Part shown: positions 3,009 through 45,541 of the stretch, piece after piece
Numbering within the stretch: the first letter of the stretch is position 1
Layout of the letters: each line of letters starts with the position of its first letter
Origin: an uncultured Clostridia bacterium
GTDB taxonomy: Bacteria > Bacillota > Clostridia > Oscillospirales > CAG-272
DNA: 64,000 bases
Reading direction: 5' to 3'
NCBI GenBank assembly: GCA_904501865.1
Contig: CAJGCF010000001.1
Span: forward strand, 1,121-65,120
Position numbers and translations under genes: made by a program
The notes under the pieces: generated by a model
Database searches by the model: none
Seen by the model: only the letters and a program-made list of their open reading frames with translations
Told to the model about the DNA's origin: nothing

Positions 3009-4970
3009 ATGCTCCCAAAGCTTTTTTCACAAATAGACAAGGAATGCGAGATAAGAATAAATAAATTTCTGAAAACCGAGGACGTGTCCGCTCTCGGCGC
3101 TTTTGCGCGCGGAGATGTTATAGATATTGAGATCGCGGTCGCGAGCCGACTTGGCGCGTGCGGCGTAGTATGTAGGATCAAGATGGACGGCGGCGCGGAT
3201 AGAGACATTCCTTTGGAGCTTGTCCGCGCTGACGAGATCTTTGACATTTATTCATTCTCACTTGATACCGCCGAACTGTGCGGAGAGCGAAACAGCGGAC
3301 TTTTTTACTATGAATTTCTTTTCCTGCGCGGTCTTAATACCTTGTTTACGAGCACGAATAACAACAAGGACTTTTTAGTAGAGGAAAAAGAGGGCAGGAG
3401 ATTCCGCTTGCTCGTTCATTCGAGTGATTACCGTACGCCAGAGAGCTTTGGCAGAGGGGTAATGTATCAAATATTTACCGATCGCTTTTTTAAGGGCGAG
3501 GGAGAACGGGTGATAAATCTTCCTGTGCGTGAGGACGCACAGTTAAATCCTGATTGGGATCATGGCATACCTCAATATTCCGCGTATTCGGGCGCGCCTC
3601 TTAAGAACAATATGTTTTTTGGGGGAAATCTCTGGGGAATTGCTGAAAAGCTTGATTACCTTGAATCTCTTGGAGTGACGTATATATATCTCTGTCCCAT
3701 TTTCGAGGCATATTCAAATCATAAATACGACACAGCCGATTATACGCGCGTTGACGAGATGTTCGGTGGAGACGAGGCACTTGACAATCTGATATCTGAG
3801 GCAAAATCGCGCGGAATAGGCATAATTCTTGACGGAGTATTCAATCACACGGGAGACGATAGCGTATATTTCAACAAATACAGAAAGTACGGAGATGGCG
3901 GCGCTTATAATGACGCTCATTCCGAGTATGCGGATTGGTATAAATTCCGCATACACCCCTATGACTACGAATCCTGGTGGGGAATAGATATTTTGCCAAA
4001 GCTCAACCATAAAAACGAGGGATGTCGCAGATATTTCACGGGTGAGAACGGAATAATAGCAAAATATATACGCCGTGGCATCGCGGGCTGGCGTCTTGAC
4101 GTTGCGGACGAGCTCAGCAACGAGTTTCTCGACGAGCTTAGAGAGAGTGCAAAGAAATCAAGCGACGGAGAAGCCGTTATAATAGGTGAGGTCTGGGAAA
4201 ACGCCGCAGATAAGGTGGCATATGCCCAAAGACGAAGATATTTTCTTGGAAAACAGCTTGATAGCGTTATGAACTATCCCTTAAAGAACGCGATAGTCTC
4301 ATTTTGCTTGTACGGTGACGGAGAATTTTTGTATGATACCCTGACCGAGATATACGCGTCTTATCCGACTATGGTATCTCATAAGCTTATGAATCTGCTT
4401 GGAACTCACGATACCGAGAGAATATTGACGGTGCTTGGCAGAGACGAGGGCGACGAGAATGACGACAACTGCGTACTTGCGACCAAACACCTTACCGCAG
4501 AGCAGAAAAAAGAGGGAATAAAGCTTCTGAAAATAGCGGCAGCACTTCAGTTCACCGCATACGGTATTCCGTCGGTGTATTACGGCGACGAGGTAGGACT
4601 TGAGGGATATGGAGATCCCTTCTGTCGAATGCCTTTTCCGTGGAACGATATGAATGATCCTTGCAGGATCGAAATATTAGACTATTATAGAGCTCTCGGT
4701 AGGATGCGCGCCACTGAGGCGGCATTTGACGGCGGCAGATTCTATTTTTTGGATCACTCGGGCTCTCACGTGACCTACGTTAGAGAAAATAAGGATAGCA
4801 GAGTGATTATAAGTGCCAACAGAGGTGAGGAATACTCTCTTGACATTCCGCAAGGGGTAATTTACGTAAACCTTATGAGCGGAGTTGAGCATTGCGGCGA
4901 GGTGAAAATTCACAAGGACAGCGTAGTTATATTAAAGGAAGTCCGAATGAGAGGAGCAGAGCATCTATGA
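3009..4970 (+). CDS. GH13 alpha-amylase-family glycosidase (neopullulanase/amylopullulanase-like)
   Basis: 653 aa with the four GH13 conserved regions: DGVFNHTG, GWRLDVADEL, GEVWE, LLGTHDTER. Confidence 0.8.
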   Translation: MLPKLFSQIDKECEIRINKFLKTEDVSALGAFARGDVIDIEIAVASRLGACGVVCRIKMDGGADRDIPLELVRADEIFDIYSFSLDTAELCGERNSGLFYYEFLFLRGLNTLFTSTNNNKDFLVEEKEGRRFRLLVHSSDYRTPESFGRGVMYQIFTDRFFKGEGERVINLPVREDAQLNPDWDHGIPQYSAYSGAPLKNNMFFGGNLWGIAEKLDYLESLGVTYIYLCPIFEAYSNHKYDTADYTRVDEMFGGDEALDNLISEAKSRGIGIILDGVFNHTGDDSVYFNKYRKYGDGGAYNDAHSEYADWYKFRIHPYDYESWWGIDILPKLNHKNEGCRRYFTGENGIIAKYIRRGIAGWRLDVADELSNEFLDELRESAKKSSDGEAVIIGEVWENAADKVAYAQRRRYFLGKQLDSVMNYPLKNAIVSFCLYGDGEFLYDTLTEIYASYPTMVSHKLMNLLGTHDTERILTVLGRDEGDENDDNCVLATKHLTAEQKKEGIKLLKIAAALQFTAYGIPSVYYGDEVGLEGYGDPFCRMPFPWNDMNDPCRIEILDYYRALGRMRATEAAFDGGRFYFLDHSGSHVTYVRENKDSRVIISANRGEEYSLDIPQGVIYVNLMSGVEHCGEVKIHKDSVVILKEVRMRGAEHL

Positions 4971-6211
4971 AATACGTAAATTCACTTAAATATATGAATA
5001 GCTTTGGTGCCGCTGAGAAACGTTCGGAGATATCTCAGAAGCGGGCACGAGAGCTCTGCGAGCTACTCGGCAGGGTACATATAGGCACGCGCTACGTGTG
5101 TATCCCTGATGGAAGTGCGGGACACTCTATCTCGGTAATGCTTGAATCCGTTATAAAGCACGCGGGCTATCGCGTTGGCAGAATAAGCTCGGAGGCTGAT
5201 TTGGACTCTCGCGGAACAGTCTTTATAGACGGTGAGATACCGTCAATAGACGATTACAACAGATCCGTTGCGGAGCTCAAGAACGCTTTGCAAAAGACAC
5301 CCGACGTTACCTATTATAAGGAAGAGGCAACTTTTGCGCTCTCTCTCCTGCTTTGTAAGCTTGAAGGGTGTGAGTACGTTATCCTTGAAGGGCTTTCAAA
5401 CGATAGCTACGGTCTTGACGCTATCTGCGCGCCCTACGATCTAATCATAATGCCTACCATTTATGAGGGTGGGGTTGAGGATAGTAGGATAAAAGCTGTA
5501 TGCGACAGTATACGCAGAGGCACTCGAGAGGTGGTCAGCGGAAATCAGAGAAGTGAGATATATAATATCATATCAAACGCCTGCGCCCTCAGCGGTGTAA
5601 GGCTTTATATTCCCGTAAAGGCACAGTTTGAGATAAATAGTATATCGTCACGCAGACTTGAATTTTCATACGGCGGACGCGACGGATATGTTTTGAAGAA
5701 TCCGTCACATATGCAGAGAGATTGCGCGATGACGGTCATAGAGAGTGCGCTTGCAATACGTCGAGACGGAGTTAAAATGCCGTGGGGCAGTATAGCTCAG
5801 GGAATAGAGCGAGCGACTGATACAGGGTGCTTTGATATCATATCACTCTCGCCCGCTATCATTACGGATACTGCCCACACAAAAGAGGAGATAGAGCTTT
5901 TGCTTAAAAGCTTTTGTGAGGTGTTTGACGACGGCGTTGAATTTGTTATCTGCCTTAAGACCGACGGAGATAAAGCTCTTGCCGAGCAGCTCTCGGCATT
6001 CAAGGACAAGAGAATTCGCAAGGTTTTAGCGATGTCTGACAGCGAGCTTAAATTGAGCGTAGATACGCCCGTGATAGCATGCAATAGCGCGAAGGATTTC
6101 GCAAGACTTGTGTATGACGAGCCCAAGGATTCTTGTGCAGTGCTTTGTATGGGAGACGTTTCCTTTAACAAAGATTTTAAGACCGAATTTATAAAACTTA
6201 TGGGATATTAA
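4967..6211 (+). CDS. FolC/Mur-ligase-like protein with degenerate catalytic motifs
   Basis: Colinear resemblance to folylpolyglutamate synthase, but the P-loop GTNGKGS is replaced by DGSAGHS and DGAHNP by DTAHTK. The start ATG at 4967 overlaps the GH13 stop (ATGA). The track ORF from 4892 would overlap GH13 by about 80 nt. Confidence 0.5.
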   Translation: MKYVNSLKYMNSFGAAEKRSEISQKRARELCELLGRVHIGTRYVCIPDGSAGHSISVMLESVIKHAGYRVGRISSEADLDSRGTVFIDGEIPSIDDYNRSVAELKNALQKTPDVTYYKEEATFALSLLLCKLEGCEYVILEGLSNDSYGLDAICAPYDLIIMPTIYEGGVEDSRIKAVCDSIRRGTREVVSGNQRSEIYNIISNACALSGVRLYIPVKAQFEINSISSRRLEFSYGGRDGYVLKNPSHMQRDCAMTVIESALAIRRDGVKMPWGSIAQGIERATDTGCFDIISLSPAIITDTAHTKEEIELLLKSFCEVFDDGVEFVICLKTDGDKALAEQLSAFKDKRIRKVLAMSDSELKLSVDTPVIACNSAKDFARLVYDEPKDSCAVLCMGDVSFNKDFKTEFIKLMGY

Positions 6212-19500: not shown

Positions 19501-20337
19501 TTGACAGACCGCAGAGAGATAATAGAGAATATCATAAGGTGTCCGATATGCTCGGAGGCTCTTTTCGTCACGGATGACGGCAAGAGTGCGCTATGCCGAG
19601 GAGCGAGACGACATTGCTTTGATTTTTCAAAGGACGGATATTTGAGCCTTTCCTCGCAGGGCGGCGGAGGGGACTCCAAAGAAGCGGTCACGGCGCGCCG
19701 CAGATTCCTTGAAAAGAACTATTATCTTGATAAGGCGAACGCTATATGTCAGACGGTGAAAAAATATCTGCCGCAAAGCTCGGTCATAATAGATGCAGGG
19801 TGCGGAGAGGGATACTATACCTCAAGGCTTGCGGAATGTGCAGACCGTGTGATAGGATTTGACCTTTCAAAGTTTGCCTGTGCCGCGGCGGCTAAATATG
19901 CGAAAAAAGAGGGAATTGGCAATCTTTTATATGCTACGGCAAGTGTTTTCGAGCTTCCCGTGACGGATAACAGGTCTGACGCGATAGTAAATATTTTCGC
20001 CCCGTGTGCCGAAGATGAATATATGCGAGCTCTCAAGGATGGAGGATATCTTTTCGTCGTAGGAGCGGGCAGGCAGCATCTTATGGGGCTCAAGGAGCTT
20101 CTCTACGATAACGTGTACGAAAACGGAGAGAGGCGTGACCTTCCCACGCGTATGGAGCACGTGGAGAAAGTCATCTGCACCAATGAGATAACGGTGCGCG
20201 GACAGGAGGACGTTGAGGCTCTGTTTTCTATGACGCCGTATTATTGGCGAACAAGTGTCGGTGACAAAGCAAAGCTTGAGGGAGTAGAAGCTCTCACTAC
20301 AACTGTGGAATTTGAAATAAACGTATATAAAAAATAA
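19501..20337 (+). CDS. rlmA: 23S rRNA (guanine-N1)-methyltransferase RlmA-like
   Basis: N-terminal Zn motif CPICSEAL...C...RHCFDFSKDGYLSL. SAM motif IIDAGCGEGYY. Colinear with E. coli RlmA(I). TTG start with GGAGA 6 nt upstream. Confidence 0.75.
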   Translation: MTDRREIIENIIRCPICSEALFVTDDGKSALCRGARRHCFDFSKDGYLSLSSQGGGGDSKEAVTARRRFLEKNYYLDKANAICQTVKKYLPQSSVIIDAGCGEGYYTSRLAECADRVIGFDLSKFACAAAAKYAKKEGIGNLLYATASVFELPVTDNRSDAIVNIFAPCAEDEYMRALKDGGYLFVVGAGRQHLMGLKELLYDNVYENGERRDLPTRMEHVEKVICTNEITVRGQEDVEALFSMTPYYWRTSVGDKAKLEGVEALTTTVEFEINVYKK

Positions 20338-21077: not shown

Positions 21078-21104
21078 AAAAGTCCCACGGCAAGTGGGAC
21101 TTTT
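21078..21104. terminator. Bidirectional intrinsic terminator between convergent GT2 and the K-rich ORF
   Basis: AAAAGTCCCAC-GGCAA-GTGGGACTTTT: a perfect 7-bp GC-rich stem flanked by A- and T-tracts. Confidence 0.75.
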
Positions 21105-30812: not shown

Positions 30813-31445
30813 ATGTCTAAAGTAAAATGGAAGGGCGGAGCTCTGATAGCCCCTCTGCCTCCCGTGATGGTAAGCTGTGGAGATATGGAGAGGTCAAATA
30901 TCATAACGGTGGCGTGGACGGGAATTGTCAACACCATACCTCCAAAAACCTATATATCGATAAGGCCGTCGCGACATTCCTACAACATAATAAAGGAGAG
31001 CGGGGAGTTTGTTCTCAATCTTACTCCGTCAAGCCTTATAAGGCATGCGGATTACTGCGGAATATACACGGGAGCAAAGGTTGATAAATTTGCAAAATGC
31101 GGACTTACCAAGGAGGCGGCACAGGTCGTATCTTGTCCCATAATATCGGAATGTCCGCTTTCCCTTGAATGTAAGGTCACAGGGATAATACCGCTTGGAA
31201 CTCACGATATGTTTATGGCGGATATCGTTGCGGTAAACGTTGACGAGGCTCTTATAAACAAGGACGGCAAGCTCGACCTTGCCCGCGCGGGACTTGCCGC
31301 GTTTGCTCATGGAGAGTATTTTGAGCTTGGAAAGAAGATAGGAAGATTCGGATTTTCTACTGACAAAAAGAAAAAGACGTTGAAGACTCACGCGACTCCT
31401 TCCACCAAAAAGGGAACACAGAAAAAAAGCACAAAGCAAAAATGA
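30813..31445 (+). CDS. Flavin reductase-like (FMN-binding split-barrel) protein with Lys-rich C-terminal tail
   Basis: PLPPVMVSCGD...NIITVAWTG...SGAKVDKFAKCGLT is typical of flavoredoxin/flavin reductase domain proteins. A tail of about 29 aa, DKKKKTLKT...KKGTQKKSTKQK, follows. Promoter TTGACA-17-TACAAT lies upstream. Confidence 0.75.
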   Translation: MSKVKWKGGALIAPLPPVMVSCGDMERSNIITVAWTGIVNTIPPKTYISIRPSRHSYNIIKESGEFVLNLTPSSLIRHADYCGIYTGAKVDKFAKCGLTKEAAQVVSCPIISECPLSLECKVTGIIPLGTHDMFMADIVAVNVDEALINKDGKLDLARAGLAAFAHGEYFELGKKIGRFGFSTDKKKKTLKTHATPSTKKGTQKKSTKQK

Positions 31446-31482
31446 TAAAAAACGGAGAGGCACACACCTCTCCGTTTTTTTA
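31445..31482. terminator. Bidirectional intrinsic terminator
   Basis: AAAAAACGGAGAGG-CACACA-CCTCTCCGTTTTTTT, between convergent genes. Confidence 0.8.
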
Positions 31483-38105: not shown

Positions 38106-38705
38106 ATGGCGGAGTACATAGAGTCCTTGCAAAAGCTTGCCGAACAGTTTGGCAGACTTGAGGGCGTAGGAAAAAAGAACGCTATGAAAATGGCATTTTC
38201 CGTGCTCGATATGACGGCTGAGGAGGCCGAGGAGTTTTCCAAGGCTATAATAGAGGCAAAAGAGAAGATACATCTCTGTCCTATATGCCAGAACATAACC
38301 GACAGAGAGGTCTGTCCTATATGCGCGGACCCAAACAGAGACAGAAGAACTGTTTGCATAGTCTCTGACCCAAGAGTAGTTATATCTATGGAGAAGGTCA
38401 GGGAATACAAGGGAACATATCACGTCCTTCACGGAGTTATATCTCCTATGAACGGAATTACCCCCGATAAGCTCAAGATAAAGGAGCTGTTGGCAAGGAT
38501 AGACGATGGAGAGATAGAGGAAGCGATAGTAGCCACCAATCCAACGGTCGAGGGAGAGGCTACCGCTATGTATATATCAAGACTTCTAAAGCCTTTTGAC
38601 ATAAAGGTTACAAGACTTGCATACGGTGTTCCTATGGGAAGTGACCTTGAATATGCCGACGAGATAACACTTTACCGCGCTATCGAGGGCAGACGTGATT
38701 TCTGA
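38106..38705 (+). CDS. recR: Recombination protein RecR
   Basis: 199 aa. HhH region GVGKKNA, C4 zinc finger CPICQN...CPIC, Toprim domain. Confidence 0.95.
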   Translation: MAEYIESLQKLAEQFGRLEGVGKKNAMKMAFSVLDMTAEEAEEFSKAIIEAKEKIHLCPICQNITDREVCPICADPNRDRRTVCIVSDPRVVISMEKVREYKGTYHVLHGVISPMNGITPDKLKIKELLARIDDGEIEEAIVATNPTVEGEATAMYISRLLKPFDIKVTRLAYGVPMGSDLEYADEITLYRAIEGRRDF

Positions 38706-38746
38706 TAACAATACGGGACGGCAAAAGCCGTCCCGTATTGTTATCA
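38703..38746. terminator. 44-nt perfect palindromic bidirectional terminator containing both stop codons
   Basis: TGATAACAATACGGGACGGC-AAAA-GCCGTCCCGTATTGTTATCA. The recR TGA (38703-38705) and the topB stop (38744-38746, minus strand) are the outermost stem bases. Confidence 0.8.
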
Positions 38747-42122: not shown

Positions 42123-43778
42123 ATGGGTATTACAGGAAATTTGTATAGAGAGATGGCGCTTTCGGGCGCGGCTTTGCTCAGCAACAAAAAGGAAGAGATA
42201 AACAATCTCAACGTTTTCCCCGTGCCTGACGGCGATACGGGTATCAATATGAGTCTCACGATGAGCACTATCGGAAATACCGCAGAGGGACTCGGAATTG
42301 GCGAGAGCGCAGAAAAGATTGCGGGCTTTATGCTCCGTTCCGCAAGAGGAAACTCGGGAGCTATCCTCTCACTTTTCTTCAGAGGCGTGTCCAAGGCACT
42401 CAAGGGTGTTGATGAGGCAAGCTCAAAGGATATGGTAGAGGCATTCAAAAGAGGTACTACAGAGGCATACCGTGCGGTTATGAAGCCCACAGAGGGAACG
42501 ATACTTACGGTAATGCGTATGTGTGGCGAGGAGGCCGAGAAGGCGTATCTTGCAAACAAGAGAATAAGCGTTAAAAATCTTTTCAAGGTAATACTTAAGG
42601 GTGCCGAGGATGCTTTGGCACAGACACCCGAGATGCTCCCCGTGCTCAAGCAGACGGGAGTAGTCGATGCCGGCGGCGCGGGATTTGTTTGCGTGCTTGA
42701 GGGTATGGTAGCGGCTATGGAGGGTAAGCCTTACGTTGCCGAGCATAGCGCGGACGAGAATAATACTCCTACAGAGATGCGTTCAGGCGCTGATTTCTCG
42801 GATTTCAATACCGATGATATAAAGTTTGGATATTGTACCGAGTGTATAGTCGAAAAGAATGAAAAGTATGCGGGTGAGGATACGTCGGGCGAGCTCTATG
42901 AGTTCATTAAGAGCATTGGTGACAGTGCGGTCTTTGTTGACGACGAGAGCATCATCAAGCTTCATATCCATACCAACGATCCCGGAGCAGTACTTACGAA
43001 GGCGATAGAGTTCGGAAACCTTGCCACCGTTAAAATTGAAAACATGAGAAATCAGCATACTGAACTCATGTCAGGTAACAAGGAAGAGCCTGCACCAAAA
43101 AAATCCCAGCCTGTTATTGAAAAAAAGTACGGATTCGTAAGCGTATGTATGGGTGACGGCATAAAAAATATGTTTACCGACGTCGGAGTCGATAATATCA
43201 TAACAGGCGGACAGACTATGAATCCAAGCACTCAGGATATTATTGACGCTGTTATGAAAACTCCCTCGGAGTACGTATTCATACTTCCCAACAATAAAAA
43301 CATCTGTATGGTTGCAAGGCAGGCATCAGAGATAGTCACCGAGAGAAAGGTAATAGTAATTCCCACAGAGACCGTTCCTCAAGGAATGGCGGCTATGATA
43401 GCATATAATCCCGACGGTGAGCTTGATGAGGTTATCAAGGGTATGCAGGAGGGAGCAGCTATGGTGACTTCTATGTCTGTTACGTTTGCGGTAAGAGATA
43501 CCGAGATAGACAGATTCAACATCAAGAAGGGACAGTACCTTGGTCTCGTTGAAGGAAAGATAGCTTGTGTAAGCAACGACAGCTTCAGTTGTGCAAAGCA
43601 GTTGACAAGAGGAATGACGGGAGCCTCCTACGTTACCGTATTCTACGGTGAAGACGTAAGCGAGGAAAAGGCAGAGAAGTTTGGCGCTCTTGTTTCTGAA
43701 AAGATCGGAGACGGATGTGACGTTGCCGTGCTTTATGGCGGACAGCCTCTTTATGACTACATCATTTCCGTTGAATAA
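42123..43778 (+). CDS. fakA: DAK2-domain protein of the YloV/FakA family (fatty acid kinase ATP-binding subunit-like)
   Basis: 551 aa from the ATG at 42123 (GGAGA RBS). DAK2 motif PDGDTGINM...ARGNSG. C-terminal YloV-type domain. The stop lies 24 nt from the palindrome axis. Confidence 0.75.
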   Translation: MGITGNLYREMALSGAALLSNKKEEINNLNVFPVPDGDTGINMSLTMSTIGNTAEGLGIGESAEKIAGFMLRSARGNSGAILSLFFRGVSKALKGVDEASSKDMVEAFKRGTTEAYRAVMKPTEGTILTVMRMCGEEAEKAYLANKRISVKNLFKVILKGAEDALAQTPEMLPVLKQTGVVDAGGAGFVCVLEGMVAAMEGKPYVAEHSADENNTPTEMRSGADFSDFNTDDIKFGYCTECIVEKNEKYAGEDTSGELYEFIKSIGDSAVFVDDESIIKLHIHTNDPGAVLTKAIEFGNLATVKIENMRNQHTELMSGNKEEPAPKKSQPVIEKKYGFVSVCMGDGIKNMFTDVGVDNIITGGQTMNPSTQDIIDAVMKTPSEYVFILPNNKNICMVARQASEIVTERKVIVIPTETVPQGMAAMIAYNPDGELDEVIKGMQEGAAMVTSMSVTFAVRDTEIDRFNIKKGQYLGLVEGKIACVSNDSFSCAKQLTRGMTGASYVTVFYGEDVSEEKAEKFGALVSEKIGDGCDVAVLYGGQPLYDYIISVE

Positions 43779-43826
43779 TTGAAATAGAGAAATGCCGACG
43801 CATGCGTCGGCATTTCTCTATTTCAA

Positions 43827-45482
43827 TTATTCAACGGAAATGATGTAGTCATAAAGAGGCTGTCCGCCATAAAGCACGGCAACGTCACATCCGTCTCCGA
43901 TCTTTTCAGAAACAAGAGCGCCAAACTTCTCTGCCTTTTCCTCGCTTACGTCTTCACCGTAGAATACGGTAACGTAGGAGGCTCCCGTCATTCCTCTTGT
44001 CAACTGCTTTGCACAACTGAAGCTGTCGTTGCTTACACAAGCTATCTTTCCTTCAACGAGACCAAGGTACTGTCCCTTCTTGATGTTGAATCTGTCTATC
44101 TCGGTATCTCTTACCGCAAACGTAACAGACATAGAAGTCACCATAGCTGCTCCCTCCTGCATACCCTTGATAACCTCATCAAGCTCACCGTCGGGATTAT
44201 ATGCTATCATAGCCGCCATTCCTTGAGGAACGGTCTCTGTGGGAATTACTATTACCTTTCTCTCGGTGACTATCTCTGATGCCTGCCTTGCAACCATACA
44301 GATGTTTTTATTGTTGGGAAGTATGAATACGTACTCCGAGGGAGTTTTCATAACAGCGTCAATAATATCCTGAGTGCTTGGATTCATAGTCTGTCCGCCT
44401 GTTATGATATTATCGACTCCGACGTCGGTAAACATATTTTTTATGCCGTCACCCATACATACGCTTACGAATCCGTACTTTTTTTCAATAACAGGCTGGG
44501 ATTTTTTTGGTGCAGGCTCTTCCTTGTTACCTGACATGAGTTCAGTATGCTGATTTCTCATGTTTTCAATTTTAACGGTGGCAAGGTTTCCGAACTCTAT
44601 CGCCTTCGTAAGTACTGCTCCGGGATCGTTGGTATGGATATGAAGCTTGATGATGCTCTCGTCGTCAACAAAGACCGCACTGTCACCAATGCTCTTAATG
44701 AACTCATAGAGCTCGCCCGACGTATCCTCACCCGCATACTTTTCATTCTTTTCGACTATACACTCGGTACAATATCCAAACTTTATATCATCGGTATTGA
44801 AATCCGAGAAATCAGCGCCTGAACGCATCTCTGTAGGAGTATTATTCTCGTCCGCGCTATGCTCGGCAACGTAAGGCTTACCCTCCATAGCCGCTACCAT
44901 ACCCTCAAGCACGCAAACAAATCCCGCGCCGCCGGCATCGACTACTCCCGTCTGCTTGAGCACGGGGAGCATCTCGGGTGTCTGTGCCAAAGCATCCTCG
45001 GCACCCTTAAGTATTACCTTGAAAAGATTTTTAACGCTTATTCTCTTGTTTGCAAGATACGCCTTCTCGGCCTCCTCGCCACACATACGCATTACCGTAA
45101 GTATCGTTCCCTCTGTGGGCTTCATAACCGCACGGTATGCCTCTGTAGTACCTCTTTTGAATGCCTCTACCATATCCTTTGAGCTTGCCTCATCAACACC
45201 CTTGAGTGCCTTGGACACGCCTCTGAAGAAAAGTGAGAGGATAGCTCCCGAGTTTCCTCTTGCGGAACGGAGCATAAAGCCCGCAATCTTTTCTGCGCTC
45301 TCGCCAATTCCGAGTCCCTCTGCGGTATTTCCGATAGTGCTCATCGTGAGACTCATATTGATACCCGTATCGCCGTCAGGCACGGGGAAAACGTTGAGAT
45401 TGTTTATCTCTTCCTTTTTGTTGCTGAGCAAAGCCGCGCCCGAAAGCGCCATCTCTCTATACAAATTTCCTGTAATACCCAT
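43827..45482 (-). CDS. fakA: Mirror copy of fakA-like DAK2 protein
   Basis: Exact mirror (87605-x) of 42123-43778; identical translation in the ORF track. Confidence 0.75.
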   Translation of the reverse strand: MGITGNLYREMALSGAALLSNKKEEINNLNVFPVPDGDTGINMSLTMSTIGNTAEGLGIGESAEKIAGFMLRSARGNSGAILSLFFRGVSKALKGVDEASSKDMVEAFKRGTTEAYRAVMKPTEGTILTVMRMCGEEAEKAYLANKRISVKNLFKVILKGAEDALAQTPEMLPVLKQTGVVDAGGAGFVCVLEGMVAAMEGKPYVAEHSADENNTPTEMRSGADFSDFNTDDIKFGYCTECIVEKNEKYAGEDTSGELYEFIKSIGDSAVFVDDESIIKLHIHTNDPGAVLTKAIEFGNLATVKIENMRNQHTELMSGNKEEPAPKKSQPVIEKKYGFVSVCMGDGIKNMFTDVGVDNIITGGQTMNPSTQDIIDAVMKTPSEYVFILPNNKNICMVARQASEIVTERKVIVIPTETVPQGMAAMIAYNPDGELDEVIKGMQEGAAMVTSMSVTFAVRDTEIDRFNIKKGQYLGLVEGKIACVSNDSFSCAKQLTRGMTGASYVTVFYGEDVSEEKAEKFGALVSEKIGDGCDVAVLYGGQPLYDYIISVE

Positions 45483-45541
45483 TAAGTGTCTCCATTCCAC
45501 CGACTGTGTCAGTTTGGTTTATAGTGATTATCCGTTCTATA

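Follow-up and report, generated by a model that had tools for sequence, protein, structure and literature searches.

The window, the whole stretch of 64,000 nucleotides that was analysed, turns back on itself just downstream of the fakA gene and from there on repeats its own reverse complement. This mirror is very probably an artefact of one kind or another and not DNA of the organism. The real element at the turning point is a candidate transcription terminator lying between fakA and a convergent gene encoding a DHHW protein. Specifically, the fold-back probably arose in silico, in the assembly graph, at the perfect palindrome formed by this terminator.

Mirror symmetry downstream of fakA

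The symmetry axis lies between positions 43802 and 43803, inside GCATGC (43800-43805, an SphI site), 24 nt past the fakA stop codon. The half-site TTGAAATAGAGAAATGCCGACGCA occupies positions 43779-43802. The GC-rich core GCCGACGCATGCGTCGGC (43794-43811) has A/T-rich tracts on both sides. An earlier note, made from the sequence alone, had described the axis between 43802 and 43803 within GCA/TGC, its distance of 24 from the fakA stop, the GC-rich core and the A/T tracts, and on rereading the sequence all of these were found as stated. When the comparison is extended outward from the axis, the mirror arms are complementary at 20,198 of 20,198 positions without a single mismatch, and the symmetry stops only at the window end. 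Positions 43803-64000 are the exact reverse complement of 23605-43802, and the palindrome, of which the 48-bp span 43779-43826 is merely the intergenic middle, measures at least 40,396 bp. A chance origin of the mirror is excluded, since even a 30-bp perfect palindrome is expected only 4e-5 times in 43.8 kb.

The left arm (23605-43802, plus strand) is genuine chromosomal sequence. Its genes have Pfam matches, it is colinear with the same-species contigs L001 (99.9% identity) and L062 (98% identity), and its synteny is seen in the more distant genomes L003 and L004. The mirrored genes are ordinary core genes. They encode a sigma factor, a thiamine transporter, an ABC transporter, a class-I tRNA synthetase of the Trp/Tyr type and an aminotransferase, and are followed in our list by polA, dnaX, ybaB, recR, a topoisomerase gene, degV and fakA. 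The fakA gene (42123-43778, plus strand) encodes a protein of 551 aa with the domains DAK2, FakA_M and FakA_C (Pfam E-values from 1.8e-37 to 1.6e-75). It starts with ATG at 42123, in an open reading frame that opens at GTG 42105, and ends with the stop codon TAA at 43776-43778. The FakA protein of the window is identical to protein P0122, whose NCBI record places it on one contig of 89,844 bp.

The region 43824-64000 (minus strand) is a non-native mirror copy, being the exact reverse complement of 23605-43781 with no mismatches to the left arm. In real genomes of the species this place is taken by the DHHW-MBOAT operon, as is seen in the contigs L063, L064, L065 and L066, and also in L060 and L061. 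The second fakA gene at 43827-45482 (minus strand) is false. It is the mirror of 42123-43778 and lies within the mismatch-free part. The corresponding open reading frame, 43827-45500 on the minus strand, has 557 codons for amino acids, the same length as the one on the plus strand.

The terminator and the native locus

A homology search and a cluster look-up for same-species FakA records yielded four other FakA-bearing records. In all four other assemblies of the species (98-99.9% identical) the native junction between fakA, the terminator and DHHW is present or implied. The most direct evidence comes from contig L063 (Logan, ERR15157064), which is 99.06% identical to the window over 2.6 kb. 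Past the fakA stop it reads TTGAAATAG, then the 30-bp palindrome, then TTATTTTATTATCTGCGCG..., and runs unbroken into the 3' end of the DHHW gene. The continuation after the two half-palindromes AGAAATGCCGACGCA/TGCGTCGGCATTTCT is TTATTTTATTATCTGCGCGAGC.... Compared with L063, the window leaves the native sequence at 43818; if its strain has the longer, 42-bp form of the palindrome described below, it does so at 43824.

The closest contig, L001, was assembled by MEGAHIT from ENA sample ERZ27234998, is 56 kb long and is 99.92% identical to the window. It ends 15 nt past the axis, exactly at the last base of the 30-bp palindrome. The other side of the locus was sought in the same sample by a search with the DHHW protein, and it was found as predicted. 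This is L064, a 17.8-kb MEGAHIT contig also from ERZ27234998, which carries valS...MBOAT-DHHW and includes 14 nt of the hairpin, so that it ends 1 nt before the axis. The two contigs overlap by 14 nt (GCGTCGGCATTTCT). Thus the chromosome is continuous at this point, and the hairpin is a breakpoint of short-read assembly. The contig L065 (Logan, SRR11528971) also stops at the axis, and its last base, exactly at the axis, is a mismatch. In all, three short-read contigs (L001, L064, L065) from two independent datasets (ERZ27234998, SRR11528971) end inside the hairpin. Such ends suggest graph ambiguity or a loss of read quality there.

In one more strain (98% identical, GCA_054298075.1) fakA is separated from the terminator by an insertion, represented by positions 11657-11900 of L062 and 11264-11435 of L066. 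The contig L062 departs from the common sequence 5 nt past the fakA stop, where it reads TTGAA, then TCAAAACCACCGGTTCAACCGGTGG..., with hairpins CCCCTATAAGGGGC / CCCCTAAAAGGGGC. The contig L066 rejoins the common sequence at AAATAGAGAAATACCGACGCA, and both contigs end within the insert, which may be a mobile element. The differing sequence after fakA in L062 was considered as a sign of a variable chromosome end. This was rejected, as the hairpin and DHHW are present on L066 from the same MAG, which makes the difference an insertion.

These contigs bear on the remaining claims of the earlier note about the locus. It had proposed that the sequence may turn back right at the apex of the native fakA terminator hairpin; indeed, the same hairpin stands in native context in L063, L064 and L066. 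It had further stated that the sequence natively following fakA is absent from the window. This is correct: the missing sequence is the convergent DHHW-MBOAT operon, and neither the DHHW nor the MBOAT protein has a tblastn match in the window. The 3' end of fakA does continue elsewhere into non-mirror sequence, as L063 runs into DHHW. The downstream synteny in relatives is also informative, the order fakA -> terminator <- DHHW <- MBOAT being found in L003, L004, L060 and L061. A DHHW protein that differs by 2 residues from that of L064, P0124, is placed by its NCBI record on a 2,026-bp contig. This contig may be the orphaned native continuation, a lead only.

The native palindrome AGAAATGCCGACGCA/TGCGTCGGCATTTCT (43788-43817, with the axis between the halves) is perfect, spacerless and 30 bp long, and is seen in native context in L063 and L066. 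The L066 copy has one base of the left arm changed (A for G at -9). The palindrome constitutes the stem-loop of the terminator between the convergent genes fakA and DHHW. In strains where the DHHW stop codon is TAG, including L064, it is extended to 42 bp (43782-43823). In fakA orientation L064 reads GCGTCGGCATTTCTCTATTT and then TATTATC..., which equals the window up to 43823 and differs from it from 43824 on. The stop codon of DHHW is TAA in L063 and L066 and TAG in L064 and L065, which is a polymorphism at window position 43818 (+16), with C in L064. The TAG codon puts C at +16, so that the perfect palindrome has 42 bp instead of 30 bp. Judging by its nearest relatives, the window's own strain may carry the 42-bp form, as L064 shares its sample with L001, the contig closest to the window. 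A silent substitution in a stop codon thereby alters the hazard for an assembler, from self-mirror edges at k up to 29 to such edges at k up to 41.

The native sequence of L063 folds with -32.9 kcal/mol (z = -7.2) on the plus strand and with -25.6 kcal/mol (z = -5.7) on the minus strand, that of DHHW. The terminator tails in L063 are TTTCTTTATTTTATT on the plus strand and TTTCTCTATTTCAATTATT on the minus strand. The stem starts 9 nt past the fakA stop and directly past the DHHW stop. A consensus terminator scanner made no call at the native hairpin, presumably because its stem and tail rule merges the T tract into the stem. By its folding energy and the layout of its sequence, the native element is a predicted bidirectional intrinsic terminator common to fakA and DHHW. 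Like other bidirectional Rho-independent terminators, it has a GC-rich stem of approximately 13 bp (core GCCGACG.../...CGTCGGC), preceded by an A-rich tract and followed by a T-rich one. A stem followed by a U-tract is predicted on both strands, 9-24 nt past two convergent stops and in a conserved position. It is peculiar in one respect only: the "loop" too is a palindrome (GCAT/GC...), and thus the palindrome as a whole is even and spacerless. Unlike other such terminators, the native element forms one perfect, even palindrome over its full 30-42 bp, a property that is incidental to termination and decisive for assembly.

The unique 43.8 kb contain one spacerless palindrome longer than 16 bp, that of the fakA terminator, and none other in 1-43787. 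The earlier note had likened the half-site to the terminators at 21078-21104, 31445-31482 and 38703-38746. These are indeed real hairpins with an A-tract, a GC-rich stem and a T-tract; unlike the fakA hairpin, they have unpaired loops of 4-5 nt. The hairpin at 38703-38746 has the longest stem in the arm, the 18-bp ATAACAATACGGGACGGC with a 4-nt loop, which is longer than the stem of the fakA hairpin. The recR and topoisomerase genes converge on this second bidirectional terminator, where the window shows no fold-back.

The locus is also conserved in more distant genomes. Contigs L060 and L061 (about 90% identical) contain fakA, DHHW, MBOAT, a gene for an ECF transporter S component, a Mur ligase-family gene (folylpolyglutamate synthase-like), a DUF4349 gene, a HAD hydrolase gene and valS. 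In both, the palindrome is interrupted by a 2-nt spacer (GCA-CA-TGC), and both contigs pass through it. The scan of GTDB representative genomes, where the best match has 84% protein identity and no genome is of the same species, was used for comparison of synteny and terminators. The closest representatives come from animal guts; they are MAGs of uncultured Eubacteriales/Oscillospiraceae that keep the upstream synteny and have a FakA of 70-84% identity. In the two closest of them, L003 and L004, fakA is followed by the terminator and by DHHW and MBOAT in convergent orientation. An equivalent hairpin with a T tract stands directly 3' of fakA in most of the 32 relatives examined. In relatives at 75-90% identity fakA lies within contigs and has 10 kb of conserved synteny to either side.

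The stem core CCGACGC...GCGTCGG is kept in L003, L004, L014, L060 and L061, in which DNA identity across the flanking genes is only about 75-90%. Such conservation is unusual for an intergenic hairpin. In L004 there is a spacerless palindrome too, of 24 bp (GTGCCGACGCAC/GTGCGTCGGCAC). When JGI metagenome contigs were scanned for the 24-nt core of the hairpin, AATGCCGACGCATGCGTCGGCATT, four contigs were obtained (L056-L059; JGI JACCDK/JACCEB/JACCDL/JACCDH), where the core also forms a terminator-like hairpin in an unrelated organism; otherwise these contigs have no similarity to the window. This is probably a chance match among very many terminators, as a palindromic 24-mer has just 12 free positions. 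The same scan of viral contigs gave no matches to the 24-nt core.

Origin of the mirror copy

In a de Bruijn graph, a spacerless palindrome would have a specific effect. Every (k+1)-mer that shares its centre is its own reverse complement, as long as k+1 does not exceed the length of the palindrome. With the default k list of MEGAHIT this would happen at k = 21 and 29, and also at 39 for the 42-bp form. Such a self-mirror edge would lead from the forward strand to the reverse one. If the DHHW continuation was unsampled, had low depth or was pruned as a tip, then the sole unambiguous walk would lead from the fakA arm through the palindrome into the reverse complement of the arm, and the assembler would output a palindromic contig. 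In iterative-k assemblers the join made at low k could persist to larger k, since contigs from earlier rounds re-enter as input. All sequence to the right of 43817 (or 43823 for the longer form) would then be a false reverse-complement duplicate, and the true downstream genes would reside on another contig.

In the reconstructed native sequence, the axis-centred (k+1)-mers are self-reverse-complementary at k = 21, 27 and 29 and not at larger k. A toy edge-centric de Bruijn graph was built on the reconstructed native locus, along with a variant where the first 60 nt past the palindrome were unsampled. In this variant, at k = 21 and 29 (and at 39 for the 42-bp form), the walk folds back along the full arm and reproduces the window base for base. 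With full sampling, the walk at low k stops at the palindrome, and at k exceeding the palindrome length it follows the native path. The toy graph is a demonstration that the mechanism is sufficient, not a proof that it occurred. The end of L001 at +15 was considered as independent proof of a graph effect at k = 29. This was rejected, as the toy graph with full sampling gives +13 at k = 29, and a gap, or the T/C strain polymorphism at +16, accounts equally well for the end at +15.

If fold-backs fell at random positions, about 1 in 43,800 would match this axis, and thus the palindrome must be causal. That the fold-back occurred at the spacerless palindrome rather than at one of the looped hairpins is weak statistical evidence, of roughly 1 in 4, with one fold-back observed.

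Self-mirror edges give rise to palindromic unitigs, and both SPAdes and MEGAHIT output these whole (Rahman & Medvedev 2022, PMC9528984). Palindromic contigs were removed as assembly errors from short-read assemblies of M. bovis (PMC9455707), and likewise from cyanobacterial single-cell genomes (bioRxiv 10.1101/2023.06.06.543983). The window resembles the palindromic contigs formed by self-mirror edges or lonely inverted loops (PMC9528984) in that an arm is joined to its reverse complement with zero mismatches, the axis lies on an even genomic palindrome longer than a commonly used k, and the native continuation is missing from the contig. However, its arms, at least 20 kb and possibly about 45 kb long, are large by the standards of this artefact, and a typical final k far exceeds the 30-42 bp of the seed, so that either inheritance from an early low-k round or missing coverage is needed.

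Many sibling MAGs of the clade in NCBI have MEGAHIT k141 contig names, which are tied to the window by association only. A final k of 141 is far above the 30-42 bp of the palindrome, and thus the mis-join must be inherited from a low-k round, which is plausible for MEGAHIT. The length of the NCBI contig with the identical FakA, 89,844 bp, is even, as a palindrome spanning the whole contig requires, a mere 1-in-2 coincidence.

One possibility is that the fold-back is physical, that is, a chimeric molecule that was faithfully assembled. The mirror would still be an artefact, and this is essentially the mechanism of the earlier note; we consider it possible but rather unlikely. In one version, a DNA end at the terminator snaps back and is extended during end repair, PCR or MDA, or a polymerase switches templates at the hairpin, and the fold-back molecules then supply reads for the mirror junction. 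In another, a long fold-back read, with the complement strand directly after the template, is assembled. The axis coincides with the very tip of a highly stable hairpin (-32.9 kcal/mol for the native RNA fold). As the odds of this by chance are about 1 in 43,800, the hairpin must have a causal role, and snap-back priming is a known route by which a hairpin can have one. The cyanobacterial single-cell genomes with palindromic contigs were reportedly amplified by MDA. Palindromic contigs have been reported from single-cell genome assemblies (bioRxiv 10.1101/2023.06.06.543983), and inverted-duplication artefacts are prevalent in Nanopore reads (PMC9054137). As in fold-back chimeras of both types, produced by MDA or polymerase snap-back and seen on Nanopore (PMC9054137), the sequence of the window is followed by its own reverse complement, and hairpins can prime such synthesis.

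However, artefacts of the Nanopore type start at the ends of molecules or fragments and not at one specific internal palindrome or hairpin, and thus the long-read version leaves the exact coincidence with the palindrome unexplained. Snap-back, in turn, does not require a spacerless palindrome, yet the window folds back at its only spacerless one and not at 38703-38746 with its longer stem. Further, arms of at least 20 kb exceed a single short-read fragment, so that a graph-level walk along the arm would be needed anyway. Finally, in ERZ27234998 the contigs stop in the hairpin without folding back. A purely computational cause fits the data at least as well as snap-back or template switching, and the fold-back in the assembly graph is the reading that we prefer.

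A real duplication is far less plausible. Here the terminator palindrome would have seeded a giant inverted duplication private to one strain, through a hairpin-capped break and replication, with at least 20 kb of core chromosome doubled and the DHHW side displaced. Short inverted repeats do seed large palindromic duplications in eukaryotic and E. coli model work. On the other hand, a perfect spacerless palindrome of more than 40 kb would be expected to be highly unstable in bacteria, owing to hairpin cleavage of the SbcCD type. The native junction is present or implied in all four other same-species assemblies, and the location of P0124 on a 2,026-bp contig is consistent with an orphaned native continuation, though this is a lead only. 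Besides, a short-read MAG consensus could not establish such a structure. Hence we regard this origin as highly improbable. That the contig is correct, with either a palindrome-seeded giant inverted duplication or a hairpin-capped chromosome arm in this one strain, is hardly credible; if true, it would be a natural case of large-scale duplication seeded by a palindrome in an uncultured lineage of gut Clostridia.

The least probable reading, which we consider refuted with practically no chance left to it, is that a protelomerase (ResT / TelN / TelA type) resolves a linear replicon at the axis, which would be a hairpin telomere or its replicated junction, with the assembler reading round the end. 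Replicated hairpin telomeres do read as perfect palindromes, and the hairpin is where two short-read contigs from another sample terminate, but L063 (99.1% identical) crosses the site unbroken into DHHW, the ends of L001 and L064 are two sides of one continuous locus with a 14-nt overlap, the more distant relatives (75-90% identity) have fakA inside contigs with 10 kb of synteny on each side, and the anatomy of the site is that of an ordinary terminator between two convergent genes. The earlier note had rated telomeres low, and justly so, as L063 reads straight through and no protelomerase-like gene was found among the scanned window ORFs. In particular, a Pfam scan of 30 window ORFs, namely those in the unique part with 150 aa or more together with ybaB, revealed no protelomerase or telomere-related domain. 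The likeness to the systems of Borrelia (ResT), phage N15 (TelN) and Agrobacterium (TelA) is limited to the perfect palindrome at an apparent turn-back point, whereas a 99.1% identical strain has an unbroken, internal locus here, and the palindrome is a terminator between two convergent housekeeping operons.

Consequences for the public contig

The underlying real element thus appears to be an ordinary bidirectional terminator, and the mirror is very probably not a real genomic feature. A public contig, apparently the NCBI MAG contig of 89,844 bp, would then contain a false duplicate of at least 20 kb, possibly about 45 kb. The single-copy genes polA, dnaX, recR, degV and fakA, together with the topoisomerase gene, are doubled in it, which inflates estimates of duplication and contamination as well as gene counts. 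The false mirror also conceals the true junction of fakA and DHHW. The locus may serve as a worked example of how a natural spacerless terminator palindrome of 30-42 bp breaks contigs, as in two other datasets, or folds one back. Screening for such cases is trivial: it is sufficient to check a sequence against its own reverse complement about an internal axis. The example also cautions against reading perfect palindromes in MAGs as telomeres.

The window contains no tRNA genes. Its unique left part (1-23604) encodes glycogen phosphorylase, an amylase, enolase, AddAB, an HtrA-like protease, a two-component system and SpoVAD. Between the gene of the alpha-amylase family and that of enolase there is an open reading frame of 439 aa (4892-6211, plus strand) with no Pfam match at E <= 1e-5. 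As listed, it begins with a TTG start codon and overlaps the preceding open reading frame by 79 nt.
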